A stretch of 64,000 nucleotides of DNA from Rhodospirillales bacterium (GTDB taxonomy: Bacteria > Pseudomonadota > Alphaproteobacteria > Micavibrionales > Micavibrionaceae): positions 1,462 to 65,461 of the forward strand of contig JACKIP010000009.1 in NCBI GenBank assembly GCA_020638395.1, given 5' to 3'. Below, in pieces: positions 11,500 through 55,632 of this stretch. The position numbers and the translations under genes are program-made. The stretch's first letter is position 1. The number at the start of each line of letters is the position of its first letter. Below the pieces are notes generated by a model. It worked only from the letters and a program-made list of their open reading frames with translations. It was not told the origin of the DNA and searched no databases.

Positions 11500-13572
11500 A
11501 TGGTCATACGATTCACATTATTTGTTTTGTTCTGCTGTAGTGGAATTATGGCACAGGCGGCGGAGCCCCGGACTTTTTATGGTGTTCGCGGGCTGAATAC
11601 GGTTCCGGATGCGCGGGCGGACGAGACGGGGCGGGTTCATCTGACCCTCTCCCGCATGGGTCGCTATACGCACGGGATTTTGGGGGCGCAAATGAGCGAT
11701 CATGTCTATGTTGCTGTGCGCCAGAGTGCGGAGGCAGATCATTTGTTCGAAGAGCCGGAGCGTCTGTATCCCGGACTTGATACCAAACTTCAGTTGTGGG
11801 ATGAAACAGCGTTCCGTCCGGCGGCGGCGCTGGGGTTACAATCTGCTTTCGGGCATAAGCGCATGGCCGGGGAATATCTGGCCCTGTCGAAGCGCTGGAA
11901 TGAATTTGACGCAACGCTTGGCATGGGATGGGGGCGCTTCGGGCAGGCCGGACATTTCAAAAATCCGTTTGGCCTGATTTCTCATTTTGATAAAAACCGT
12001 CCGATGGAAGATGAAACGGCCAATGATCCCTCCGACTGGTTCACGGGAGAGCGGGTCGGAGTTTTTGCCGGACTATCCTATGAGCTGCCGGTGAAGGGAT
12101 TAGTTCTGACCGCGGACTGGAACGCGGACCGGTATCAGGCCGAGCGCGCCGCGACCGGAAATTTTCAGGCCCCGGCCCCGTGGAGTCTCGGGGTGCAATA
12201 TCAGCCTTCTGACTCTTTCAGTGCCGGGATCGGGGTGATGGGCGGAGATCAGGTCATGGGACGGATGACCCTGTCTCCCAATGTTGCGGACTGGCCCTGG
12301 CGGGCTGCTAAGAAGAGAGCTCTCCCACCTGTTACAACCGAGCGTCCGGCAGTCGGAAAAATCGAGGACATTTCGGTCGAGGCCCGCGATGATGGGCAGA
12401 TTCTTGAAATTGTCGCGGCGGACGGGGCTGTGCTGGACACCGTTTTGTCTGTGGAAGATTCTGTCTCTGCGCCGGCCCAGTACGGACGAGCGGTGCGCCA
12501 TATGATGCGGCAGGCCCCTCCGGAGGTCACAACTTTCCGGATTTTCCCGCATTTTGCCGGGTTGCAGGGGGCGCGGCTGAGCCTGATCCGTCGTGATCTG
12601 GAGCAGGCTTTGGGGGCTCATGCGGGGAGCGCGGACGAGATCTGGCAAAGCGCGGAGTTTGACCGTCATCTGGTCCGGCTGCCATATAAAGGAATAAATG
12701 CCCATAATCTGTGGCCGGATCATATTATCCTGCAGCAACAGGTGAGTCTGTCGGAGGAAGATCAGGGTGTGCTGTCCCGGACCGGATTGATTATAGAGGA
12801 GCAGCGGGCGGCATCAGGACCATGGGCGGTGGGGGGGGCGCTAAGGCTTAATCTGGGGGATAATCTGCAAAATCTGAATGCGGCCCGCGGGCGGCCTTTC
12901 CTTCCGGTGCGCAGCGATATTGATCTGTTTGCGCGGCAAACCGTCTCGCTTGACCGTATGTATTTGTCTTATCTGAAAACGCTCTGGCCGGATGTTCATG
13001 TCGGGGCGACGGTAGGGTATCTGGAGGAGCAATATGCCGGGGCGGGGGGCGAGCTTCTCTATCGTCCCTTTGGCAGAAACTGGGCGATTGGCGCGGAAGC
13101 ATGGGGGGTCTTTAAGCGGAACCCGCTGACAGCGTTTAATCAGGGAATTGGCGTCGATCATCTTCTGAGTGGTCATGTGCAGGGATGGTACCGACTGCCA
13201 CAACATCCGGAAACAACTGTGCATGTGCGGTTGGGACGCTATCTGGCAGAAGATCTTGGAGGCACTCTGGGGCTTGTGCACCGTTTTAAGAACGGGGCAA
13301 AGCTGGAGGGATTTGTTACCATGACCGATCAGAGTGATACGGATGTGTTCGGCGGAACAACCCACTTGCAGCACGGGGTGAAACTCTCTTTGCCGCTGGG
13401 AAGCCTGGATTATATTCCTGATAAAAGCCGGATGGATCTGGTAGTCGCTCCGTTTGGGAGAGACTCCGGGCAACATCTTGATAAACCTGTTTCTTTATAT
13501 GATCTGACCGAAGCTTTTTCTTTGCAGCATGTGGCGACGCATTGGGGTGATCTGGTTGGAGCAGAAAATTAG
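11500..13572 (+). CDS. YjbH/GfcD-family outer-membrane exopolysaccharide protein
   Basis: Signal peptide (FTLFVLFCCSGIMAQA/AEP); blocks matching E. coli YjbH: GMGWGRFGQAGHFKNPF, GGAGGELLYRPFGRNWAIGAEAWGV, GGTLGLVHRFKNGAKLEGFVTMTD; track start 11464 is TTG, ATG at 11500 used. Confidence 0.75.
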   Translation: MVIRFTLFVLFCCSGIMAQAAEPRTFYGVRGLNTVPDARADETGRVHLTLSRMGRYTHGILGAQMSDHVYVAVRQSAEADHLFEEPERLYPGLDTKLQLWDETAFRPAAALGLQSAFGHKRMAGEYLALSKRWNEFDATLGMGWGRFGQAGHFKNPFGLISHFDKNRPMEDETANDPSDWFTGERVGVFAGLSYELPVKGLVLTADWNADRYQAERAATGNFQAPAPWSLGVQYQPSDSFSAGIGVMGGDQVMGRMTLSPNVADWPWRAAKKRALPPVTTERPAVGKIEDISVEARDDGQILEIVAADGAVLDTVLSVEDSVSAPAQYGRAVRHMMRQAPPEVTTFRIFPHFAGLQGARLSLIRRDLEQALGAHAGSADEIWQSAEFDRHLVRLPYKGINAHNLWPDHIILQQQVSLSEEDQGVLSRTGLIIEEQRAASGPWAVGGALRLNLGDNLQNLNAARGRPFLPVRSDIDLFARQTVSLDRMYLSYLKTLWPDVHVGATVGYLEEQYAGAGGELLYRPFGRNWAIGAEAWGVFKRNPLTAFNQGIGVDHLLSGHVQGWYRLPQHPETTVHVRLGRYLAEDLGGTLGLVHRFKNGAKLEGFVTMTDQSDTDVFGGTTHLQHGVKLSLPLGSLDYIPDKSRMDLVVAPFGRDSGQHLDKPVSLYDLTEAFSLQHVATHWGDLVGAEN

Positions 13573-13582
13573 GGGTGAAATC

Positions 13583-14095
13583 CTAACGGCCCTCCAAAAG
13601 GCCGTCCGGAATGGACACATGAATGGTTTTTGCGGCAATATCAACCGTGCCGACAAAATCGCCTTTGAATGGCAAATAAAAGCTAGAGCCGGAGGCTGGT
13701 CTGATATCAAGCAATGCGCCTGCGCCAAAATCATCTACCGCAATTACTTTTCCAATCTCAATATTATTTTCTAAAACGACACATCCCACAAGATCTGTAT
13801 GGTAATATTCGTTCTCTTCCGGCTGTTTCAGCTTGGAACGTTCAATGTAAAGCCTGGTCCCGCGCAATGCCTCGGCCTGCGTGCGGTCGGTTATCCCGTC
13901 AATTGCGGCGACATATCCGCCTTTGATTGCATTTTTAACCTGCAAAACCAGAGTATTGGCTCCGGATTCTGTTGTGAAAAAAGGATTATAATCCTCTGTG
14001 TCGCGGATATCTTCCCCGAAATAGGTCAGCTTCACGAATCCTTTGATTCCATGAGCGGCGGCAATTTCTGCGATGAGGATACGAGGTGACGGCAT
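13583..14095 (-). CDS. rimM: ribosome maturation factor RimM
   Basis: AAHGIKGFVKL N-terminal motif, PRC-barrel C-terminus; directly downstream of rpsP. Confidence 0.85.
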   Translation of the reverse strand: MPSPRILIAEIAAAHGIKGFVKLTYFGEDIRDTEDYNPFFTTESGANTLVLQVKNAIKGGYVAAIDGITDRTQAEALRGTRLYIERSKLKQPEENEYYHTDLVGCVVLENNIEIGKVIAVDDFGAGALLDIRPASGSSFYLPFKGDFVGTVDIAAKTIHVSIPDGLLEGR

Positions 14096-14148
14096 GGTTG
14101 CGAAATCCCCTCTCCCGGCCTGGCCGGAGGAGGGGATGGATCACTTTC

Positions 14149-14622
14149 TTATGCGTTTTCAGCAGGAGCGTCTGTGGCGGGAGCCTCTTCGGCCGGAGCT
14201 TCTGCGGCTTCCGGTGCCGCGGCGGCAGCTTCAGCTTCTGCTGCAGCTTTTGCTTTGGCTTCTTCTTCTGCGGCCTTGGCAGCTTCAATTTTTTCCAGAC
14301 GCTCTTTTTCGCGCTCCTGTGCTTTGGCCTTTGGTTTGGCTTTCTGCGGGTTATTGCTTTGCTCCGGCATAGGGGCCAGACCGGCCTCACCCAGGAAGCG
14401 TGCGACGCGATCAGATGGTTTTGCGCCCTGACCGAGCCAGTATGTAATGCGCTCTCCAACCAGTTTTACCCGGTTTTCATCGTCTTTTTTCAAAAGCGGG
14501 TTATAGGTGCCCACTTTTTCGATAAAGCGTCCGTCACGAGGACTGCGGCTATCCGCAACCACGATCGAGTAATGCGGTCTATCTTTACGTCCACCGCGGG
14601 ACAGTCTGAGTTTTAGTGCCAT
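14149..14622 (-). CDS. rpsP: 30S ribosomal protein S16 with A/E/K-rich C-terminal extension
   Basis: [42 protein letters not shown] is a canonical S16 N-terminus; ~70-aa low-complexity tail. Confidence 0.9.
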
Positions 14623-14671
14623 AGTTTTTTCCTTTCTTAAGCGTTTCTCAGTTTTTAACTTTTTCTATCCT

Positions 14672-14715
14672 TGTCATCCCGAGGGAAGTCTGCGCAGCAG
14701 ACGGCGAGGGATGAC
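14672..14715. repeat. short hairpin element related to the nested-palindrome repeat (tGTCATCCCGAGGG...CGAGGGATGACa)
   Basis: Termini GTCATCC(C/T)GAG / CGAGGGATGAC resemble the outer stem of the 120-bp repeat; lies between ffh 3' end and rpsP 5' end. Confidence 0.5.
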
Positions 14716-14756
14716 AGTATTGAGGGCTGTAGTTTTTCCTTTCCTACTTCAACTCG

Positions 14757-16337
14757 TTAGCGTTTTTTTCGTTTGTTAATCTTTTTCGTCACTCCGCGCT
14801 TGGAGCCCCCGCCAAGGCCTGCGAGGCCGGGCATGCCCATTCCGCCCATAGGGGGCATGCCTCCCCCTAATCCGCCCAGACCTCCTAACCCGCCAAAACC
14901 TCCGGCGCTGCCTTTGTCAAACGGGTTCGGGCCGAGAAGAGACCCACCGCCGGCCTGTTGTTCTGCCTCCATCGCTTCATCAACCATGGCGGCATCTTTG
15001 CCGCTCATCAGGGATTTCATCTGCTTCATCATCCCACCCATGCCCATTTTTTTCATGCGCTTCATCACGGTTTGCATTTGCATTTGTTGTTTGGCGAGGC
15101 GGTTAATATCGTTCACGGTGACTCCGGCCCCGGCGGCAATTCTTTTTTTGCGGGAGGCATTGAGCAATTCAGGTTTTTCCCGTTCAGCTTTGGTCATCGA
15201 CAGGATAATGGCTTCCTGCTTTTTAAAGATGCTATCGTCAACTCCCGCCGCTTCCAGCTGTCCCATCATATTGCCGAGCCCCGGCAACATCTTCATAATG
15301 GCTCCCATGCCGCCCATTTTTGACATCTGGCGGATTTGTGCCAGTAGGTCATTATAGTTAAACTGCCCTTTTTTAAACTGGGCCGCCATTTTTTCGGCTT
15401 CCTGCTGATCGACGGTTTCAGCGGCTTTTTCCACCAGAGACACAATGTCTCCCATGCCCAGAATGCGGCTGGCGATCCGATCCGGGTGAAACGGTTCCAG
15501 CGCGTCCCATTTCTCGCCAGTTCCCAGCAATTTGATCGGGCGTCCTGTGACCGCTTTCATGCTCATGGCGGCCCCGCCTCTGGCATCGCCGTCAATCCGG
15601 GTCAGGACGGATCCGGTAATTCCAATTTTTTCGTGGAAAATTCTGGCGGTATTGACGGCATCCTGCCCGGTCATAGCATCGACCACCAGCAGAGTTTCTA
15701 CTGGTCTGGTCGCATTGCGGATTTGTACAACCTCCTCCATCAGAACGTCGTCAATGGACAGGCGGCCCGCCGTATCCAGCATAACCACGTCATAGCCTTC
15801 CTTACGCCCGGTCTCCATGGCCCGTTTGGCGATTTCAACCGGACTTTGCCCCTTGATGATCTCAAGTGTGGCAATACCGGTTTGCTCGCCCAGAGTTCTT
15901 AGCTGTTCCTGTGCCGCCGGGCGTGCCACGTCAAGCGAGGCCATCAGGACTTTTTTGCGCTGCTTATCAGTGAGGAATTTTGCAATTTTTGCCGTGGTTG
16001 TGGTTTTACCGGAGCCTTGCAGTCCGACCATCAGATAGGCCGACGGCGCCGGGCCGAATTCCAGCTCGGCTGTTTCATCGCCGAGCATTTCAATCATCGC
16101 ATCATTAACGATTTTAACGACCTGTTGATCAGCGCGGACATTTTTAATCAGCGCTTCCCCAACGGCGCGTTCTTTGATTTTATCAATGAATTCCTTGACA
16201 ACCGGCAGGGCGACGTCAGCTTCGAGCAGCGCCACGCGGATTTCGCGGGCTGCCAGATCAACGTCTTTCTCGGTCAATGCTTTGCCGCGCAGACCGCCGA
16301 AAATCCCACCTAATTTTTCACTCAAAGATTCAAACAT
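14757..16337 (-). CDS. ffh: signal recognition particle protein Ffh
   Basis: Starts MFESLSEKLGGIFGGLRGKALTE (Ffh N-domain); GTPase motifs GLQGSGKTTT, DTAGR, TRID; Met-rich M-domain plus G/M-rich tail; track extends 68 codons upstream with no Ffh similarity. Confidence 0.9.
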   Translation of the reverse strand: MFESLSEKLGGIFGGLRGKALTEKDVDLAAREIRVALLEADVALPVVKEFIDKIKERAVGEALIKNVRADQQVVKIVNDAMIEMLGDETAELEFGPAPSAYLMVGLQGSGKTTTTAKIAKFLTDKQRKKVLMASLDVARPAAQEQLRTLGEQTGIATLEIIKGQSPVEIAKRAMETGRKEGYDVVMLDTAGRLSIDDVLMEEVVQIRNATRPVETLLVVDAMTGQDAVNTARIFHEKIGITGSVLTRIDGDARGGAAMSMKAVTGRPIKLLGTGEKWDALEPFHPDRIASRILGMGDIVSLVEKAAETVDQQEAEKMAAQFKKGQFNYNDLLAQIRQMSKMGGMGAIMKMLPGLGNMMGQLEAAGVDDSIFKKQEAIILSMTKAEREKPELLNASRKKRIAAGAGVTVNDINRLAKQQMQMQTVMKRMKKMGMGGMMKQMKSLMSGKDAAMVDEAMEAEQQAGGGSLLGPNPFDKGSAGGFGGLGGLGGLGGGMPPMGGMGMPGLAGLGGGSKRGVTKKINKRKKR

Positions 16338-38655: not shown

Positions 38656-40215
38656 TTATATTTTCAGAGTGGTGGGTTTTTTCCATTTCAGCCAGAAGAC
38701 GACCAGAAGGCGCGTTACCATGACAGCTGTGAACAGGGAGGTTAGCACTCCGATTCCCAGTGTGACGGCAAACCCTTTGATGGGGCCAGTTCCGAATGCG
38801 TAAAGAATGGCCGCGGCAATCATGGTGGTAAGGTTGGCATCCATGATTGTGCCGATAGCACGGGAATATCCGGCATCAATTGCGGCCATTAAACTGCGTC
38901 CGTTCCGTAACTCTTCCTTGATCCGTTCAAAAATCAGAACGTTGGCATCGACCGCCATCCCGATAGTCAGCACAATCCCGGCAATTCCCGGCAGCGTCAG
39001 CGTCGCCTGCAGCATGGAAAGGAGCGCAAAAATAAGCGTAACGTTTACAAGCAACGCGATATCGGCAAAAAATCCAAAGAGACGGAATTTTCCCAGCATG
39101 AATATCAGGACCAGCGCCAGTGCAATCAGGCTGGCTTCTTTGCCGGATGCAATTGAATCTGCGCCGAGTGAGGGCCCGACAGAGCGTTCTTCAACGAATT
39201 TCAGATCGGCGGGCAGGGCTCCGGCGCGTAACAGCAGAGAGAGGTCATTTGCGGTCTGGACTGTAAAATTCCCGGAAATTTGGGCCTGTCCTGCGCAAAT
39301 AGCGCTGCGGAAAACCGGGGCGCTGATGATTTCATTATCAAGGACGATGGCGAAGCGTTTTCCGATGTTTTCTGAAGAAACCTTACAGAACCGTTTGGCC
39401 CCGACGGCATTCAGCTGGAAATTCACCGTATAACCGCCGCCCATCTGATCGCGTCCGGTCTGGGCGTTCGTCAGCATATCACCGGTAATATCGGCATTGC
39501 GTTTGACGGCAAGAGGAAATCCGCCTTCGCTTTCCGCCATGGGCAGGGTCATTGAATTCGTTCCGGTGCGACCGTTTTCATCCACCAGATGGAAAGAGAG
39601 TTTTGCGGTTTTCCCGATCAGGTCTTTGACGCGCTGCGGGTTATCAACTCCCGGTAACTGGACGAGAATACGGTCTTCTCCCTGTCTTTGAATAATAGGC
39701 TCTTTCGTTCCGGTTTCGTCAATCCGGCGACGAATAACTTCGATGGACTGGTCGATGGCCTGATCTTTAATTTTTTTGAGAGCTTCGGAGGTATAGCCGG
39801 CAGACACATCGTTGCCGGTTGTCCTCACGTCCAGTCCGTCATCCAGACGGCGCAGGAGCTTCACGGCCTGAGATGCCTGCTCCGGATCTTCCAGCCGGAA
39901 GGACAGAGCGTCACTGGCAGTTTTAACACGCCCAACGGTTCTGATTTTCTGGTCACGCAGTTCCGAGCGCAGGGCATCACGGACACCATCAAGGCGGTCA
40001 TCAACGACCCCCACGATATTGGCTTCCACCAGCAAATGCGCCCCGCCCTGCAGGTCAAGCCCCAGATTAACGGTCTGGGTTGGAATCCAGCCTGGCAGTG
40101 CTTCTTTCATCTCTGTCCGGGTTTGTTCGGACAGAACATTCGGCATGCTGTAAGCGAACCCCAGCGCACACACAAATAAAATCAGGGCGATTTTCCAGGT
40201 CGGGATATTAATCAT
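38656..40215 (-). CDS. secD: protein translocase subunit SecD
   Basis: WKIALILFVCALGFAYSMPNVL...GLDLQGGAHLLVEA, large periplasmic loop, C-terminal six-TM bundle; no yajC upstream. Confidence 0.9.
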   Translation of the reverse strand: MINIPTWKIALILFVCALGFAYSMPNVLSEQTRTEMKEALPGWIPTQTVNLGLDLQGGAHLLVEANIVGVVDDRLDGVRDALRSELRDQKIRTVGRVKTASDALSFRLEDPEQASQAVKLLRRLDDGLDVRTTGNDVSAGYTSEALKKIKDQAIDQSIEVIRRRIDETGTKEPIIQRQGEDRILVQLPGVDNPQRVKDLIGKTAKLSFHLVDENGRTGTNSMTLPMAESEGGFPLAVKRNADITGDMLTNAQTGRDQMGGGYTVNFQLNAVGAKRFCKVSSENIGKRFAIVLDNEIISAPVFRSAICAGQAQISGNFTVQTANDLSLLLRAGALPADLKFVEERSVGPSLGADSIASGKEASLIALALVLIFMLGKFRLFGFFADIALLVNVTLIFALLSMLQATLTLPGIAGIVLTIGMAVDANVLIFERIKEELRNGRSLMAAIDAGYSRAIGTIMDANLTTMIAAAILYAFGTGPIKGFAVTLGIGVLTSLFTAVMVTRLLVVFWLKWKKPTTLKI

Positions 40216-40303
40216 TTTTTGCCTTATCGTTATCTGGGGGTAATGTGGGCAAAAAAAGAGCCTCCGTCAAGAGGCTCCCTGTTTTTCAAAGACTTTATCA
40301 GAA

Positions 40304-41935
40304 TCAGGTAGATCCGTCGGATAGTTCCAGAGTTTTTTTCAGCATTGCAGTTACCTCTGTCGCCATGTGTTGCATCAGAGGTTTTGCGGCATTTTCAGGT
40401 TTTCTGACATCGCCGTTTGCATCATAGATTCCTTTTTCCAGATTCTCCCCGATTTTTGTATAGTTAACAGCCTGAAGGCCGTCGCGCCCCGTGCCATCAA
40501 AGATATAGGCGCTGTTCAGGCCAGCAATAACCTGCTGTGTTTGAGTCAGATCCGCCCCAAAGCGGTTTCCGACAAACCCGACGGCCTGTCCCATCCAGCT
40601 GCCGGGCCCACCGGGCATATTCCCCATGATGCCGCCGAGAAGTCCGTTTCCGGAGGTCCATTCCCCGCCATACATTCCCATAAAATGACCAAGAATGCCA
40701 TTCGGCCCTATCATCTCTGCCGAGCCGGTATCTCCCAGATTTTTAGCCCGGTCGATCAGGCTTTTCATCATCGGTCCCCCGAGAGCCAGTGCAGCAACAG
40801 GGGCGCTGCTTCCTGCAATCGCTGCGGCCATCCCGGCTTCGTGATGTACAGTATCTTCAATTGCGATATTTTTGAGCGTTGCCAGAGTCAGCGGCTCTGT
40901 CGTGGTGTTGGCGCGCTCGATAATACCGGTCATCAGCTGATCGCTGTTCAAAAGCGTCTCCGCTCCCTTGGAATTCGCATAGTCCGCAAATAGCTGAGAG
41001 GTGCGGTCAAGCGCTACGAATGGATTGCCTGAACTCGCGCTTCCATCTCCCGGTGTTGTAATCGAATTGGTAATCGCCGTGTTAATAACGGCTTCCAGTT
41101 GCGGGTGTTTTTCCAGCGCTGTGGCGAGTTTTTCCTGAAATCCTGCGATGGAGTCTCTGCTTGCGCCGCCCATATCCATCAGCATTCCGGCTTTTTCCTG
41201 CAGGCCGAAGCTTGAGACGATTCCGGCGACCCCTGCATTATCAAAAGATCCGCCTTTGTTGTTATGCTCCATCACTTTATTGATAACAGTTTCCGCGGCT
41301 CCCGATTGCGCAATGCGGAAAAAACTGTTTGGATTTGCAGCAATCGCCTGTAAAACAGGGGCATTCTCACGCAGGCGGTTGGTCAATCCTTCGATATTGG
41401 GAGTTTCATCACCACTCATACCGTTTTTGATCGTGCCGCCCACCAGTGTTTCCAGTCGATTCTGGACTCCTTCATTGTCTCTCAGGCGTTGCATAAAACT
41501 TCCGGTAGCATCTTTGTCAATTCCGGCAACCGAGAACGCCGTTTGCATGATGGTGGGCGCATCCATATGGGTTGCAAGTTTTGTAAAGAATGCTTTGGTA
41601 TCTCCACCATCCCGGAAAAAATCAGTTACGCTCGGCTCATTTTCGGCAAAAGACTTTTTCAGCTCCTGATAGTGTTTATGATCTTCAGACCCTTCCGGTG
41701 CGGTTCTCAATCTGGTCAGCGTTTCACCCATCGCCTGTTCCAGATCTTTCCCCATGCGACGTTCTGCCTCGTCTATGGCAACCCGGTTACTGACCCCCAG
41801 TGTGTCTCCTGTGGCGGCGACTGATAGTCTTTGAATTTCATCATCAAAAACGGTCTTGTTATGGTCATCGTTGCCCATAACGGAATTGATGATGCCTTCC
41901 AGCACAGTATGTTTATCTTCTACATCTTTGCTCAT
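40304..41935 (-). CDS. hypothetical soluble 543-aa protein (Gly/Met/Asn-rich), translationally coupled to the 133-aa ORF; candidate T4BSS-associated protein or substrate
   Basis: No TM or signal peptide, no recognisable domain; glycine-rich C-terminal third (GGIMGNMPGGPGSWMGQAVGFVGNRFG); start ATG overlaps the upstream stop as ATGA at 41932-41935; lies in the icmJ-icmB island. Confidence 0.5.
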   Translation of the reverse strand: MSKDVEDKHTVLEGIINSVMGNDDHNKTVFDDEIQRLSVAATGDTLGVSNRVAIDEAERRMGKDLEQAMGETLTRLRTAPEGSEDHKHYQELKKSFAENEPSVTDFFRDGGDTKAFFTKLATHMDAPTIMQTAFSVAGIDKDATGSFMQRLRDNEGVQNRLETLVGGTIKNGMSGDETPNIEGLTNRLRENAPVLQAIAANPNSFFRIAQSGAAETVINKVMEHNNKGGSFDNAGVAGIVSSFGLQEKAGMLMDMGGASRDSIAGFQEKLATALEKHPQLEAVINTAITNSITTPGDGSASSGNPFVALDRTSQLFADYANSKGAETLLNSDQLMTGIIERANTTTEPLTLATLKNIAIEDTVHHEAGMAAAIAGSSAPVAALALGGPMMKSLIDRAKNLGDTGSAEMIGPNGILGHFMGMYGGEWTSGNGLLGGIMGNMPGGPGSWMGQAVGFVGNRFGADLTQTQQVIAGLNSAYIFDGTGRDGLQAVNYTKIGENLEKGIYDANGDVRKPENAAKPLMQHMATEVTAMLKKTLELSDGST

Positions 41936-42333
41936 TTTGCACTCCCGTCTGTTATAGCCGTTATAAGAGGCTCTTCGGTTTCGTTAATTTTTCTGGTCGC
42001 AACGGATACAAGCATTGTTCCCTGTACTTCGTCATTTTCAACATGGGCAGTCATCATATATTCAGCATGCCGCCATTCTTCTGCCAGTTGTGGGGAGATG
42101 GGCAATCCCAGAGCAATACCCAACCCACCTTTACAAATAAAGGTTACTTCATTTTCATCCCCGTCATATTCTACCCACTGCAGTTCTGAGGGAAATGCTT
42201 TGTCATGAAACATCCAGATGAGCCCGTCCTTATGCAATATAAGGGCAATTTTCATCATCTCCGCCACAGTTTTTGGTTTTTTTGGCGCAGTCTCAACAGG
42301 GGCTAATTTGCGTGTTCGTCTCATTCTTCCCAA
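41932..42333 (-). CDS. hypothetical small acidic protein (133 aa); candidate chaperone/adaptor
   Basis: 133 aa, net acidic, no TM; ATGA overlap with the 543-aa gene; no family recognised. Confidence 0.45.
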   Translation of the reverse strand: MGRMRRTRKLAPVETAPKKPKTVAEMMKIALILHKDGLIWMFHDKAFPSELQWVEYDGDENEVTFICKGGLGIALGLPISPQLAEEWRHAEYMMTAHVENDEVQGTMLVSVATRKINETEEPLITAITDGSAK

Positions 42334-46013: not shown

Positions 46014-46670
46014 TCAGGCCGCTTCCGGCAGAAGCATGTCTTTGTAGCGCGGCAGCCACTCCAGCGGCGGGTGTCCGGCAAAGGGTCCCTGTTTTGAGCG
46101 CCAATAGGCGAGAATCTGTGGAAATTGATTAAATTCGAGCCCGCTTTCCCTGATTTTGCGGCGATCCAGAGGAAACAGACGTACGCCGTCCAGCTTTTCA
46201 TTCCGTCTTTCATAGGCCTGTTTGGTTAGGAAATCCGTGAGGACGGTTGCCAGAACAAAAGGATCGTCCGTCCCCAGTCTATTCCTTGCATCGTTCCGTC
46301 GTTCCATAATGACTTCCAGCATGGATTTTGCCGTCTCGGACATAACCCCTTGCGATATACGTGCGATATAGATGGAGCGGGCGAGGTTATTAAGGTCTGG
46401 CTGGCTGATCTCTGGCATCCATATCAGAACTCCTGAGCCCATCGGGGCAACATCTTCGAGATGGAAGCACTGGTGGCAGAACATGCAGGTTGTGACCATA
46501 TTCGCGAGGGTCTGGTTATTGGGATTTCCGTCCAGATGGTGGATCAGCTGGTACTTTTCAGCCCGGAACTGGCAGTAGTGACAGCTATGGTCATCACGTT
46601 TTAGAACCTGATTGATAACGTCTGTCGGAAGCGGTTTTTGTGCTTTATATCGTGATACACTAAGTTGCAT
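46014..46670 (-). CDS. icmJ: type IVB secretion system protein IcmJ/DotN
   Basis: 218 aa; Cys-rich motifs DDHSCHYCQF...LDGNPNNQTLANMVTTCMFCHQCFHLE...GSGVLIWMPEISQPDLNNLARSIY match from memory the IcmJ/DotN pattern (RYTCQFCGF...LDGDYTNN...LVTACCFCAQCF...GGGTLIYLPELTQAELNSL); adjacent to and co-oriented with icmB. Confidence 0.85.
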   Translation of the reverse strand: MQLSVSRYKAQKPLPTDVINQVLKRDDHSCHYCQFRAEKYQLIHHLDGNPNNQTLANMVTTCMFCHQCFHLEDVAPMGSGVLIWMPEISQPDLNNLARSIYIARISQGVMSETAKSMLEVIMERRNDARNRLGTDDPFVLATVLTDFLTKQAYERRNEKLDGVRLFPLDRRKIRESGLEFNQFPQILAYWRSKQGPFAGHPPLEWLPRYKDMLLPEAA

Positions 46671-46685: not shown

Positions 46686-48056
46686 TTAGCTGAATGTTAG
46701 TCCTGGCAATCCCGCGATCGGTCCCAAAGTGGACTGAACTGCTGTCAGGAAAGGGCCGAGGTTAACAAGAATTGTGCCGCCGAGCAAGTGAGTTATGGCT
46801 GACATCATAGAGGCCTGTTGTGCGCCTTCGGCAACGGATCTGAAAATAAACAGGCCGCGCACAAAGCTGATCCAGCCGAGGATAAGCATGTAGGCTAAAA
46901 CCGCACTAATAAAATTCTCCAGCCGATCTTCATAGGCAGTAAGACCGCCACCGGGGATGGTTAGGTCAACTTTTGTTTCTGCGGTGCTGTCACCAAACAA
47001 AGTCGTCGCGAATGCCCCCATGGTTGGTCCCAGAGCCAGTAAGGCGGCGCCAGTTATGAATGTCATGATCGTTCCGATTCCTCCGGGACCGCGTGGGCCA
47101 TCCTGCATGGTTTTCATCAATCTGAATACACCCATGATAATCAGGACCATTCCCGCCATATAACTGAACCCTGCCAGCACGAATTTGATAATACCGTGGA
47201 TATTAAAGACAAAGTTCGAGACGACCAGATCAAGGCTTTGAGCGTTACCTTCGCCTCCGCCTATCGCTGCGCCATTGTGCAGGTTGAAGTCTGTCGTCGT
47301 CTGTGTGCCCATGCCTCCCAGCAGAGTTCTGGCTGCAACATCCAGCGACCAAGGCAAAACCAGCAGCAATGTGGCAACAACGTAGCGCTGAAACGGGACC
47401 CAGAGAGATACTTGCCCCGGATTTTCAACACTTTGCTTCAAACTAATTGTTGCAAAATACATCAGGGTCAGGCCCGCGATATAAGAAAAGCCGCTGAGCA
47501 ATCCGGGAATATTCGAGATGTGATCCCACATATTACAGAAAATACCGGAAATCATTCCCGCGAACTGAGCATTCAGACAAGCTGAGCCTGGGTCGGCGAT
47601 TGTTGTGACAACACCGTTCAGGGTTATATATATTTTTCCGGAAGCACCGCCTGCAGAAAAGAAACTCATGCCGCCCCAAGTCTTAACGTTGCCTCCCATT
47701 GCCGTTGTAATCAGGGTTTCATACAGAACGGGCAGGGCCAGCAGAAGTCCGCAGACAACAAACTCGATGATCGGGGTGCGGATCGGCATTTCTCTGGGGC
47801 CGGCCGTTGTGTGTTTGACCATATCCAGAACAGCTTTAACTCCAAGAGCCAGACCGCTCAGATAGGCGGCGATAGACACCAGTCCAGGAAGAAAATAGGA
47901 ATTGGTCAGCAGATTATCGGTAATACAGTTGACGTCATCGCCTGTAGCACAGGTCGCGACTACTCCTCCAGCGTATGCACGCTCTGCCAGAAAAAATATC
48001 AGGAGGCCGAGTGTCGCAGAAAGGCTGTAAAATCTGTTTTTTAAGGTCATAATCAA
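46686..48056 (-). CDS. polytopic inner-membrane protein (456 aa, signal peptide, ~10 TM) in the IcmC/IcmD position; putative T4BSS membrane component
   Basis: Signal peptide ending ERAYA/GG, many TM helices with Gly-rich loops; sits where the small membrane proteins IcmC/DotE and IcmD/DotP lie relative to icmJ-icmB, but is far larger; no direct similarity recognised. Confidence 0.5.
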   Translation of the reverse strand: MIMTLKNRFYSLSATLGLLIFFLAERAYAGGVVATCATGDDVNCITDNLLTNSYFLPGLVSIAAYLSGLALGVKAVLDMVKHTTAGPREMPIRTPIIEFVVCGLLLALPVLYETLITTAMGGNVKTWGGMSFFSAGGASGKIYITLNGVVTTIADPGSACLNAQFAGMISGIFCNMWDHISNIPGLLSGFSYIAGLTLMYFATISLKQSVENPGQVSLWVPFQRYVVATLLLVLPWSLDVAARTLLGGMGTQTTTDFNLHNGAAIGGGEGNAQSLDLVVSNFVFNIHGIIKFVLAGFSYMAGMVLIIMGVFRLMKTMQDGPRGPGGIGTIMTFITGAALLALGPTMGAFATTLFGDSTAETKVDLTIPGGGLTAYEDRLENFISAVLAYMLILGWISFVRGLFIFRSVAEGAQQASMMSAITHLLGGTILVNLGPFLTAVQSTLGPIAGLPGLTFS

Positions 48057-53508: not shown

Positions 53509-53919
53509 TTAATACTGTAGAGGCTTTTTGATGGAGCTCTCAAACTGGAACAATTCGGTTCCAAAAGGAATAAAAGTTCCCAGAAGCGGGGTCAATTCAT
53601 AGGAGACGTCAATTTCAACCCAATCTACACCATATTCTGTATAGGTATTGGAGGTGACACTCAGGTCTGTGGGGGGGACGGACATATCCCGCAGCCGATC
53701 TTCTGCATAGGTGATAATGTCTGATTCTGTTAGACCTTCATTGACGGCGACATAGCGTCCGGTATCCTCTACGGCATATTGGATGGTGTTCATGGTCCAC
53801 ATAATCCGCCCGGTTTCGAATACTCCCAGCATAATCAGAAAAAACGGAACTGCCACCAGCGCAAATTCAATCGCGGTGGCACCTGTGTTATTCCTTAGAT
53901 AGTTGATAATACCATTCAT
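53509..53919 (-). CDS. TadE-like Flp-pilus pseudopilin
   Basis: N-terminal TadE motif GATAIEFALVAVPFFLIMLGVFETG. Confidence 0.7.
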   Translation of the reverse strand: MNGIINYLRNNTGATAIEFALVAVPFFLIMLGVFETGRIMWTMNTIQYAVEDTGRYVAVNEGLTESDIITYAEDRLRDMSVPPTDLSVTSNTYTEYGVDWVEIDVSYELTPLLGTFIPFGTELFQFESSIKKPLQY

Positions 53920-54362
53920 CAGTCAACCCTCATTCTGGAAGCTTTTGAGATTGCTACATGGTCGCTAACCCCGGGATATGGCAGGAGCGGGCTATAGCTT
54001 CCACTGACACTGACGCTGACAAAGCGCCGCTCAAAGTCACCGTCTCCGCAGGAGGAAATGGGGCACTCGCGGATAACGCCATCCGAGCATTCACATTCAA
54101 AAGTGGTGGTATAACTCAGGCCGGTTTCGCCGGTATCTGCCATCAGAGTATTCACCAGAGCCGGAACCTCGGTATCGTCTTTGCTGGCTGCGACGTAATC
54201 GGCAATACTGCCGGAAATATTCTGAATATTCATTTTCGAATTCAGATACAGGCCGAAATCCACTAGTCCGATAAACAACAGAATGAAAATCGGGGCCACA
54301 AATGCAAATTCTGTTGCGGCAATTCCATTTTCACGATGCAGATATAAATAAAGTTTTTTCAT
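53919..54362 (-). CDS. TadE/TadF-like Flp-pilus pseudopilin
   Basis: N-terminal GIAATEFAFVAPIFILLFIGLVDFG; 1-nt overlap with the downstream tadE-like gene. Confidence 0.7.
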   Translation of the reverse strand: MKKLYLYLHRENGIAATEFAFVAPIFILLFIGLVDFGLYLNSKMNIQNISGSIADYVAASKDDTEVPALVNTLMADTGETGLSYTTTFECECSDGVIRECPISSCGDGDFERRFVSVSVSGSYSPLLPYPGVSDHVAISKASRMRVD

Positions 54363-54366
54363 GTTC

Positions 54367-55632
54367 TTAACGGATCAGAGTTACATCTGGAATTTCTATG
54401 TCACGGTTTGCAACGTTGTCACAATTATTGCCAATGGATGGATTACCGGCAATTGTGATGGTCTTTGCAATCAGGATCGTGCAGGGGTCCGCGCCACCGG
54501 CAAATCCTGCATCGCCACCGAACCATAGGCCTTGAGAGGGAAAATACAGCACGCCTTCGATATTGATCCCGCTGGTACCCACGATTTTATTCTGAAGATT
54601 CTTTGCAGAGGGGGCATTCCGATCCTGAAAGAACGCAACACCTTCGAAGTCATCTCCTTCTTTCGGCGGGGTCAGATTTATCTGACGGCTGCCTGAAATG
54701 TCGACCTGTGCGTAATCATTTCCTTCGCCGGTCAGAATAATACTGACTTCTTCGCCGCTGAGCGTTCCGCCTCCGGTTACTTTCAAGGATCCTCCGAAGA
54801 TAATATAAACGCCGGGCTCAAAGACGATGTCATTATTTCCGGAAATTGAGATACCTCCACAATAAAGTCCGGGACTCAGAGTCGTGTCACTGTTTACCGT
54901 CAGGGCTTTTGCCTTTTTAGGGCATTCTGCGTGTGCCGGGACCTCCAGATCTTCATAGGGGTCATCAATCGGGGCTTTGTTTGTTTTCAGGCTGTTATAC
55001 TGAAAATCGGCAGCGCCGCCGGTCACATCGTAATAACCAGATATCCTGACATTATTTACAAGCACGTCCACATTCCCGGAGAGGGTAAAGGCTTGGTCGC
55101 TGCTGGAATTGACCGCGATTCCGCAACTGGGGGCAGAGAGGTCCACCGAACCGAATGAGGTAAAGGCATCGTCTGCGCTGCGGTCCAGAGATAAGAAGCA
55201 AAAATTCCCGTCAACGCCGTCTACTCGGGCTTCGGCATAGGCGGAAATCCTTTTTTTATCTGTAAAGAAGCGGGAGAATAAGGCTTCACTGTCTTCCGAG
55301 ACGGTCAATCCAATGGTATAGCTGCCATCCTCTTCTTCGGTGAGAATTGCTAAAGTAAGGTTGCCATTTGCGTCGGGGTTATAGCCGTTCGCCATTGCCT
55401 CTTTTTCGGCGGCATAGTCCATATAGTCATTACTTTTGGTGGCCAGCTCCCATCCGGCGGCGATAACACCAGCATCTGCTGCCGTTTGCAGATCCTGCTT
55501 CTTGGCCATCCAGACGCTGGCATCGACCCCCAGGCCGGCCACGCCGATAATGACAGGGAATGCAAGCGCGGCCATAACGGCAACGCTGCCGAGTGTTTGT
55601 CTATAGAAGCGGTTGAATATGTTCTTTTCCAT
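54367..55632 (-). CDS. TadG-like Flp-pilus assembly protein (large pseudopilin)
   Basis: N-terminal GSVAVMAALAFPVIIGVAGLGVDASVWMAKKQDLQTAADAGVIAAG typical of the TadG family; long beta-rich Gly/Ser/Asn-rich C-terminal region. Confidence 0.7.
   Translation of the reverse strand: MEKNIFNRFYRQTLGSVAVMAALAFPVIIGVAGLGVDASVWMAKKQDLQTAADAGVIAAGWELATKSNDYMDYAAEKEAMANGYNPDANGNLTLAILTEEEDGSYTIGLTVSEDSEALFSRFFTDKKRISAYAEARVDGVDGNFCFLSLDRSADDAFTSFGSVDLSAPSCGIAVNSSSDQAFTLSGNVDVLVNNVRISGYYDVTGGAADFQYNSLKTNKAPIDDPYEDLEVPAHAECPKKAKALTVNSDTTLSPGLYCGGISISGNNDIVFEPGVYIIFGGSLKVTGGGTLSGEEVSIILTGEGNDYAQVDISGSRQINLTPPKEGDDFEGVAFFQDRNAPSAKNLQNKIVGTSGINIEGVLYFPSQGLWFGGDAGFAGGADPCTILIAKTITIAGNPSIGNNCDNVANRDIEIPDVTLIR

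Follow-up and report, generated by a model that had tools for sequence, protein, structure and literature searches.

What do the last two genes of a short Dot/Icm (type IVB secretion) gene cluster encode in a Micavibrio-like alphaproteobacterium? The question arises from a 64,000-nucleotide stretch of DNA (hereafter the window) of a Rhodospirillales bacterium placed by GTDB in the Micavibrionaceae (assembly GCA_020638395.1, contig JACKIP010000009.1, positions 1,462–65,461), in which a 133-amino acid (aa) open reading frame (ORF), here p133, overlaps a 543-aa ORF, p543, on the minus strand downstream of icmB. Knowledge of type IVB (Dot/Icm) systems comes almost entirely from Legionella, Coxiella, and IncI plasmids, and the Dot/Icm system of Micavibrio, a group whose relatives include obligate epibiotic predators of Gram-negative bacteria, has hardly been studied so far. 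We found that p133 and p543 are the last two co-translated genes of the core Dot/Icm operon in Micavibrio-like alphaproteobacteria, and that they are two orphan families confined to these bacteria, tied to the type IVB operon and belonging to no known family. Below, we describe the pair, its relatives and its predicted structures, and weigh a tentative interpretation as a chaperone-like protein and its secretion client against other explanations.

Gene Structure and Operon Position

The p133 frame ends in GCA AAA TGA and the p543 frame opens with ATG AGC AAA, such that the p133 stop codon (41934–41932) and the p543 start codon (41935–41933) share four nucleotides (nt). A previous sequence-only reading of this locus had reported this ATGA overlap, the position of the pair directly after icmB and a bitopic membrane protein, a Gly-rich C-terminal third in p543, and a lack of transmembrane segments, signal peptides, and known domains in both proteins; direct reading of the letters, gene order, composition, hydropathy, N-termini, and Pfam and NCBIfam searches bore out all of these statements. 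A four-nucleotide ATGA overlap alone is a very common operon junction and is not beyond chance; the non-trivial part is that a tight junction was kept across loci, with p133 and its partner separated by −4 to +24 nt in all related loci reaching past p133. The p133 ORF was called from a TTG codon, and an in-frame ATG three codons further in gives an N-terminus that begins MRRTRK. Because this agrees with the MRR(T/R/K)R start of relatives (MRRTRS, MRRRRS, and MRRKRS in the closest ones), the true product is probably the 130-aa protein. Both ORFs are real genes under short-range purifying selection (ratio of nonsynonymous to synonymous substitution rates, dN/dS, of 0.07–0.09), as determined from comparison to a 96%-identical metagenomic relative (L024), which gave dN/dS values of 0.094 for p543, 0.068 for p133, and 0.082 for secD.

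A hairpin at 40277–40258, followed by seven T's, begins 26 nt past the p543 stop codon, ahead of secD. Because it sits there, the transcription unit seems to terminate after p543, just ahead of secD. The T-run lies only ∼36 nt away from the start codon of secD (40215–40257), and therefore a secD promoter would have to overlap the 3′ end of p543, or else secD would rely on read-through.

The pair completes a cluster of six genes in the order TraQ/DotE-like, IcmJ/DotN, IcmB/DotO, p197, p133, and p543 (Table 1). The third gene was assigned to the IcmB/DotO/TraU family based on full-length similarity to annotated IncI1 TraU and on an adjoining gene that passed the IcmJ/DotN cutoff. The sequence-only reading had located p133 and p543 inside a secretion island. 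They do adjoin icmB and p197, but the description is imprecise, as the pair is the 3′ end of a short six-gene Dot/Icm fragment with a terminator and housekeeping flanks, namely secDF on one side and a DUF3108 gene and truA on the other.

Distribution, Pairing, and Rates of Evolution

Scanning the window IcmB against one genome per species retrieved 22 loci with 62–86% IcmB identity, nearly all labeled as Micavibrio or unclassified Alphaproteobacteria metagenome-assembled genomes (MAGs). Four MAGs were labeled Pseudobdellovibrionaceae, and one locus belongs to the complete chromosome of M. aeruginosavorus HCB189 (L021; IcmB 72% identical). The pair of p133 and a larger partner is borne by two clades. 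In the closest clade (L001, L002, L012, and L033; IcmB 83–86% identical), p197 and p133 homologs are followed by a gene for a large Gly/Met-rich protein and by secD. The operon of the M. aeruginosavorus clade (L021, L022, L025, L027, L029, L030, and L035) encodes TrbI/DotG, a ∼430–515-aa protein, a TraQ-like protein, a 125-aa protein, DotN, DotO, a ∼175-aa p197 homolog, a ∼123-aa p133 homolog, and a ∼376–427-aa partner, past which the genes are convergent on the opposite strand (ubiH-like, an outer membrane protein gene, and rpmH). In a variant lineage (L008 and L036), the partner has only 280–285 aa. Two extra genes of 203 and 190 aa lie between the p197 and p133 homologs of L008 (12853–14046), and the L036 contig is too short upstream to tell.

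Pairing was strict: every p133-bearing contig examined that reaches downstream encodes, at most 24 nt away, a 280–860-aa Gly/Met-rich protein without a signal peptide, and icmB and a p197 homolog precede p133 wherever the contig reaches far enough upstream. This holds for the window, L001, L002, L012, L021, L022, L023–L027, L029, L030, and L033–L036, plus L008 with its two intervening genes; the L028 contig stops 29 nt past p133, too soon to show a partner. Profile searches recovered no p133 homolog in any context other than an icmB-linked one. Absence of the pair from all other genomes carrying the icmJ–icmB module, which the sequence-only reading had named as a ground for abandoning its proposal, was not what we observed, as the pair co-occurs with this module in the related genomes of both clades.

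M. aeruginosavorus HCB189 bears homologs of IcmJ, IcmB, p197, p133, and the partner (L021, 9133–15105), with the p133 ortholog at 13525–13953 and the partner at 13975–15105, and in four MAGs of the same clade (L025, L027, L029, and L035) a gene with a TrbI/DotG domain is also present upstream. According to the 2011 genome paper, M. aeruginosavorus ARL-13 gave no indication of a type III or type IV system (PMC3189940). A Dot/Icm-like subtype was counted in seven marine Micavibrionales by a 2022 survey, which did not analyze it further (PMC9418006). The ARL-13 locus is expected near GMV_2405–2408, because rpmH is GMV_2413 in that genome. A literature search found no paper mentioning the p133 or p543 families.

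Rates of evolution formed a gradient along the 3′ end of the operon. At 87–92% IcmB identity, p197 homologs were 50–63%, p133 homologs 54–70%, and partners 34–53% identical. Between clades, where IcmB identity was ∼67–76%, global alignments of p197, p133, and the partner were at noise level, and p133 was still recovered by profile at about E 1e-30. Partner length varied from 280 to 860 aa via module duplication. Of the two proteins in the pair, it is the small one that is conserved and the large one that is hypervariable.

Properties of p133

A profile search of 5.8 billion proteins delimited a p133 family of 35 proteins with 92–134 aa, typically ∼123 aa, all Micavibrio-like and all unnamed or annotated as “hypothetical.” No Pfam or NCBIfam match was obtained for p133 at E ≤ 0.1, nor for any of the 35 family members at E ≤ 1, and the family profile gave only chance matches to Protein Data Bank (PDB) sequences (E ≥ 0.17). 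The overall isoelectric point (pI) of p133 is 5.6, but its 26 N-terminal residues form a basic tail (pI 11.6), whereas its core is acidic (pI 4.6). Its maximum Kyte-Doolittle 19-residue average of 1.37, compared with 2.62 in p197, indicates that it has no membrane segment, and its N-terminus is not signal-peptide-like.

The AlphaFold2 model built on the 35-sequence alignment (mean pLDDT, the per-residue confidence score, of 85; 92–96 in the core) predicts five strands, one helix, and a long beta hairpin, with the topology b-b-b-b-b-a-b-b. A fold search with this model returned no PDB neighbor, in two libraries for which the presence of the IcmS, IcmW, and LvgA chains is unverified, and none of the fold matches was IcmS, IcmW, LvgA, a type III secretion system (T3SS) class I chaperone, or an Eag-type chaperone. 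The predicted fold is one without a recognizable relative among solved structures. The sequence-only reading had likened p133 to IcmS/IcmW-type adaptors. Like IcmS, IcmW, and LvgA, p133 is encoded with a type IVB machine and has a possible role in substrate presentation, and it may be comparable to them as a small, soluble, net acidic protein, with an acidic core but a strongly basic N-terminal tail; as a claim of membership the analogy fails, given that profile searches matched p133 to none of these families and that neither sequence nor fold places it among them.

Properties of p543 and Its Counterparts

When 1.84 billion cluster representatives were searched exhaustively with HMMER, six relatives of p543 were recovered: a near-identical copy, a 567-aa protein (40% identity, the partner in L033), an 810-aa protein (L001), an 860-aa protein, and proteins of 458 and 171 aa that are the halves of a split gene in L002. 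In this last locus (13987–15844), the p543 homolog is broken into overlapping 458-aa and 171-aa ORFs, which could reflect a frameshift, a pseudogene, or a MAG assembly error. No Pfam or NCBIfam match to p543 was found at E ≤ 0.1, no Pfam domain was present in any relative, and the p543 profile had no match among PDB sequences. Strong homology to a housekeeping enzyme, the other outcome that the sequence-only reading had set against itself, did not emerge, as sequence, profile, and fold searches matched p543 to no enzyme family or known domain.

p543 is acidic (pI 4.9), and Gly and Met make up 17 and 7% of its last third, respectively, with the block at residues 400–470 described in Table 1. 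A maximum Kyte-Doolittle 19-residue average of 1.60, against the same 2.62 in p197, indicates no membrane segment, and the N-terminus (MSKDVEDKHTVLEG) is without a hydrophobic h-region. The AlphaFold2 model is all-helical, with a mean pLDDT of 59, moderate confidence at residues ∼60–370 and low confidence at 401–543. A fold search with it returned only generic helical-repeat matches and, at this low model confidence, is uninformative. Two weakly similar units of ∼110 aa were detected in the center of the protein (self-alignment z = 3.0, reached by 5 of 300 shuffles). The longer relatives (810–860 aa) align to p543 in two registers and therefore contain extra copies of this repeat. The best-conserved segments of the p543 clade were SLQEK..LM.MGGA....IA.FQ..L.TALE.NPELE.VINTAI, FADYANS, the Gly/Met block, and the C-terminal YIFDG.NG.PAVDY..IG.N.

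Like p543, the ∼400-aa partners of the M. aeruginosavorus clade have no signal peptide and hold this position in the operon, and they too contain (D/N)PxxFF motifs in helical segments, a Gly/Met-rich block (e.g., GLLGGIMNLVMGLM and GLMGGMGNGGG), and a Pro/Gln-rich tail. NGLLGGIMGNMPGG of the p543 block recurs in positional counterparts of other Micavibrio-like lineages. Comparison of the two groups with hhalign was not significant (probability 4%, P = 0.01). A hidden Markov model (HMM) of the C-terminus of the p543 clade picked only L029 and L030 among 7089 ORFs (E 0.0095), on the short GLMGGMGNGGG motif, and the reciprocal search found nothing. Based on the 4% hhalign probability and the one-way motif match, we did not accept homology and treated these proteins as positional analogs with a common motif; common descent is plausible.

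Genomic Context

The p197 family lies directly after icmB in 28 Micavibrio-like loci and is more widely spread than the p133/p543 pair. It holds the position of IncI1 traV without sequence similarity to TraV and is probably a lineage-specific machine component. Alignments of the 456-aa TraQ/DotE-like protein to its relatives fall into two registers, pointing to a fusion or an internal duplication; in the equivalent region of the M. aeruginosavorus clade, a ∼310-aa TraQ-like gene is followed by a separate 125-aa gene. No DotL gene was found within the 64-kb window, the rest of which is housekeeping in content (secDF, glmM, thiD, hisZ, purA, truA, priA, ffh, aconitase, NAD-GDH, and others), except for the Tad pseudopilin genes at 53.5–55.6 kb. 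These are two TadE-like genes and one TadG-like gene of a Tad/Flp pilus (53509–55632, minus strand), 6 kb beyond the Dot/Icm fragment. Flp pilin was among the top-expressed attack-phase genes in M. aeruginosavorus (PMC3189940).

The closest plasmid-borne relative of the window IcmB was encoded on the Methylorubrum extorquens AM1 megaplasmid (L032; NC_012811.1, 466879–469788), with 45% identity over 96% of the length. This plasmid is typed MPF_I in PLSDB without annotated genes there, and its high G+C content makes ORF calls unreliable; the match points to another alphaproteobacterial type IVB system.

Table 1. Features of the Dot/Icm gene cluster and of the p133/p543 pair, in window coordinates.
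Feature	Position	Strand	Description and basis
p133	41932..42333	−	TTG start, 133 aa; likelier ATG at 42324, 130 aa; basic, disordered N-terminal tail and acidic beta-rich core (∼27–115), as predicted
p543	40304..41935	−	543 aa, acidic, predicted all-helical; C-terminal third Gly/Met-rich; without signal peptide or transmembrane segment
ATGA overlap, p133 stop (TGA)/p543 start (ATG)	41932..41935	−	Direct sequence reading
GGGAG, Shine-Dalgarno-like motif	41942..41946	−	6 nt 5′ of the p543 ATG, within the p133 3′ end; direct sequence reading
Intrinsic-terminator-like hairpin, GAGCCTC-ttgacg-GAGGCTC + T7	40251..40277	−	Sequence; a terminator scan finds the same hairpin
p543 central helical repeat region (residues ∼120–345)	40901..41578	−	Two ∼110-aa units; self-alignment, two-register matches to L001 and P0007, pLDDT 70–87
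p543 Gly/Met-rich block (residues 400–470)	40526..40738	−	28% Gly, 8% Met; low pLDDT; contains NGLLGGIMGNMPGG
p197, basic bitopic membrane protein, 197 aa	42368..42961	−	Between icmB and p133; Kyte-Doolittle 2.62 at residues 47–68, pI 9.8; jackhmmer matches in 28 loci
IcmB/DotO/TraU-family ATPase, 999 aa	42915..45914	−	26% identity over 90% of length to IncI1 TraU, E 3e-69
IcmJ/DotN	46014..46670	−	NCBIfam NF038221, E 3e-30, 105 bits vs. cutoff 100
TraQ/DotE-like polytopic protein, 456 aa, first cluster gene in this lineage	46686..48056	−	NCBIfam NF033883 (TraQ), E 1.7e-6, under the curated cutoff; synteny with relatives

Discussion

We tentatively interpret the pair, at somewhat less than even confidence, as a dedicated chaperone or adaptor and a secreted or exposed client of the type IVB secretion system (T4BSS). 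We arrived at this interpretation because a small, acidic, compact protein is coupled to a large, acidic, elongated, partly disordered, fast-evolving protein of variable length at the end of a secretion operon, and because the latter has neither a Sec signal nor a catalytic domain. As proposed here, p133, with its acidic, beta-rich fold, would act in the cytoplasm as a dedicated chaperone- or adaptor-like partner that binds p543 after synthesis and maintains its solubility and competence for secretion. p543 would have an elongated shape made up of helical repeats, together with a flexible Gly/Met-rich segment that could interact with a membrane or a target, and as a client of the secretion machine it would be exported or surface-exposed, meeting the target cell there. 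Such exposure would account for p543 evolving much faster than the machine and varying in repeat number.

The gene arrangement is that of a chaperone and its client, as the small acidic gene is directly upstream, ATGA-coupled, and conserved in its pairing. Small acidic chaperones encoded directly upstream of secreted clients are exemplified by VirE1/VirE2, CagF/CagA, IcmR/IcmQ, and the T3SS class I and II chaperones. In VirE1/VirE2 of the Agrobacterium type IV secretion system and CagF/CagA of Helicobacter, as in our pair, the gene of a small acidic protein immediately precedes that of a large partner, and the two are coupled in translation. These clients are large and secreted without a Sec signal, and the small protein blocks their premature self-association. 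However, neither system resembles p133 or p543 in sequence or fold, VirE1 is a ∼7-kDa helix whereas p133 is predicted to form a beta-rich domain of ∼100 residues, and both systems are type IVA, with client functions (ssDNA binding, host kinase scaffold) that have no counterpart in p543. The IcmR (FIR)/IcmQ module of Legionella and Coxiella is similar in setting, being a two-gene module in a type IVB cluster with one conserved and one hypervariable member, in which the small partner is a chaperone for a membrane-active protein. Its polarity is nevertheless reversed, with a hypervariable upstream FIR gene and a conserved IcmQ, as opposed to a conserved upstream p133 and a hypervariable downstream partner, and no family model, including any Pfam or NCBIfam IcmQ/IcmR model, matched p133 or p543. 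T3SS translocators or effectors with class I/II chaperones are also similar in arrangement, in that a small acidic chaperone gene lies beside that of a helical, partly disordered, fast-evolving exported protein at the end of an apparatus operon.

Several results weigh against this interpretation. None of the known secretion chaperones or adaptors is similar to p133, either in sequence or in fold. The sequence-only reading had suggested a check of p543 for a Dot/Icm translocation signal, and the outcome was negative: the last 30 residues (ENAAKPLMQHMATEVTAMLKKTLELSDGST) contain single Glu residues at −30, −17, and −7, with Gly at −3 and Asp at −4, and thus neither an EExxE-type E-block nor a hydrophobic −3/−4 position, which is weak evidence either way as the rule, which calls for a Glu-rich E-block at about −10 to −17 and a hydrophobic residue at −3/−4, is derived from Legionella and may not suit this lineage. 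Among the relatives, C-termini are not conserved; their tails are rich in Pro, Gly, Thr, and Gln, and a hydrophobic residue falls between −1 and −4. p543 shows no excess of glycine-zipper patterns, with 7 observed and 5.3 ± 2.2 expected from composition. A fast rate of evolution is not specific to a secreted protein, as p197 and p133 also evolve fast. Furthermore, 13 other Micavibrio-like loci gave no match to the p133 profile within 10 kb of icmB; therefore, the pair is either not machine-essential or sited elsewhere in those genomes, and it is a conserved but not universal operon extension. Finally, an invariant place at the end of the core operon across the whole order suits an apparatus subunit equally well.

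This last point leads to an alternative that we regard as possible, if on the unlikely side, namely that both proteins are non-secreted, lineage-specific structural or regulatory type IVB subunits, which might join the DotO/IcmB–DotN complex or functionally replace DotY/DotZ or IcmS/IcmW/LvgA without homology. Their fixed place as the last core-operon genes after DotN, DotO, and p197 in two deep clades would be expected of such subunits, as would purifying selection and, by default, a cytoplasmic location without signal peptide or transmembrane segment; the neighboring p197, conserved in 28 loci, itself looks like a machine part, and accessory Dot/Icm subunits such as DotY/DotZ, Dis1-3, and the FIR/IcmR genes are lineage-specific and fast-evolving. 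On the other hand, the 13 loci that lack the pair near icmB retain p197, neither protein is similar in fold to solved Dot/Icm components, and the partner shows extreme divergence, repeat-number changes between 280 and 860 aa, Ala/Pro linkers of low complexity, and Pro/Gln tails, all of them unusual features in a stoichiometric subunit. Another alternative, in which p133 is a divergent IcmS/IcmW/LvgA-type adaptor and p543 an IcmX/TraW-type periplasmic component, is very improbable and was largely refuted by our searches. It draws on gene order: the IncI1 (R64-type) traU-traV-traW-traX region is collinear with the window, where genes for TraQ-like, TraT/DotN, and TraU/DotO proteins are followed by that of a ∼200-aa protein and by lineage-specific genes, so that p197, p133, and p543 follow the VirB4-type ATPase gene where IncI1 has traV (204 aa), traW (400 aa), and traX (194 aa); in Legionella, icmW, which encodes a small acidic protein, lies upstream of icmX. 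Yet the sizes of TraW and TraX (400 and 194 aa) do not correspond to those of p133 and p543, HMMs of p197, p133, and both partner groups scored ∼0 bits against IncI1 TraV, TraW, and TraX, and neither NCBIfam or Pfam models nor PDB chains in fold libraries (in which the IcmS/IcmW/LvgA chains are, again, unverified) gave a match. We rejected p543 as IcmX or IncI1 TraW, given that the group A and group B HMMs scored 3.3 and −0.8 bits against TraW, with no NCBIfam match and no h-region; p543 and its counterparts have no signal peptide or lipobox, whereas the TraW retrieved here has a hydrophobic, signal-peptide-like N-terminus. The p197, p133, and p543 series was likewise rejected as equivalent to TraV, TraW, and TraX, to which no similarity was found.

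Two further explanations would separate the pair from export or from the machine altogether. In a toxin/immunity or effector/immunity module, p543 would be a membrane-active toxin for prey and p133 a neutralizing protein instead of an export chaperone. The tight coupling of a small, acidic, conserved protein to a larger, hypervariable one would fit such a module, as would GxxxG enrichment in the Gly/Met-rich partners of the M. aeruginosavorus clade (9–10 observed and ∼3.5 ± 1.8 expected) and a host lineage with obligate bacterial predators (PMC3189940). We give this explanation little weight: an immunity gene usually follows its toxin gene and co-varies with it, but here the small gene comes first and is more conserved, no toxin domain was detected in any member, the glycine-zipper count of the window p543 equals the compositional expectation, and each locus has one copy, without arrays of orphan immunity genes. 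It is similarly improbable that the pair is unrelated in function to type IV secretion and merely carried at the 3′ end of the operon. The lack of homology of either protein to any secretion component would allow for this, and the clade A cluster is a short fragment among housekeeping genes; however, linkage to icmB and p197 was kept in two clades with wholly different downstream genes (secD in one, convergent ubiH-like, outer membrane protein, and rpmH genes in the other), junctions were tight throughout, and no p133 homolog was seen in other contexts.

Returning to the interpretation of p133 and p543 as chaperone and client, an extension that we consider rather unlikely is that the Dot/Icm-type machine is used on bacterial prey, with p543 and its counterparts as a prey-contacting translocator or first effector whose Gly/Met block would insert into the prey envelope, and p133 as a new class of type IVB export chaperone. 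In that case, we are aware of no earlier type IVB system directed at bacteria for which a client has been identified. The lineage includes obligate bacterial predators (PMC3189940).

The pair is a lineage-specific addition to a conserved core operon. If p133 and p543 were machine subunits, they would represent one more clade-specific part of the Dot/Icm apparatus. If p543 is exported, the pair would provide an entry point to the role of type IVB secretion in a bacterial predator, and its importance would rise sharply if p543 were delivered to prey.

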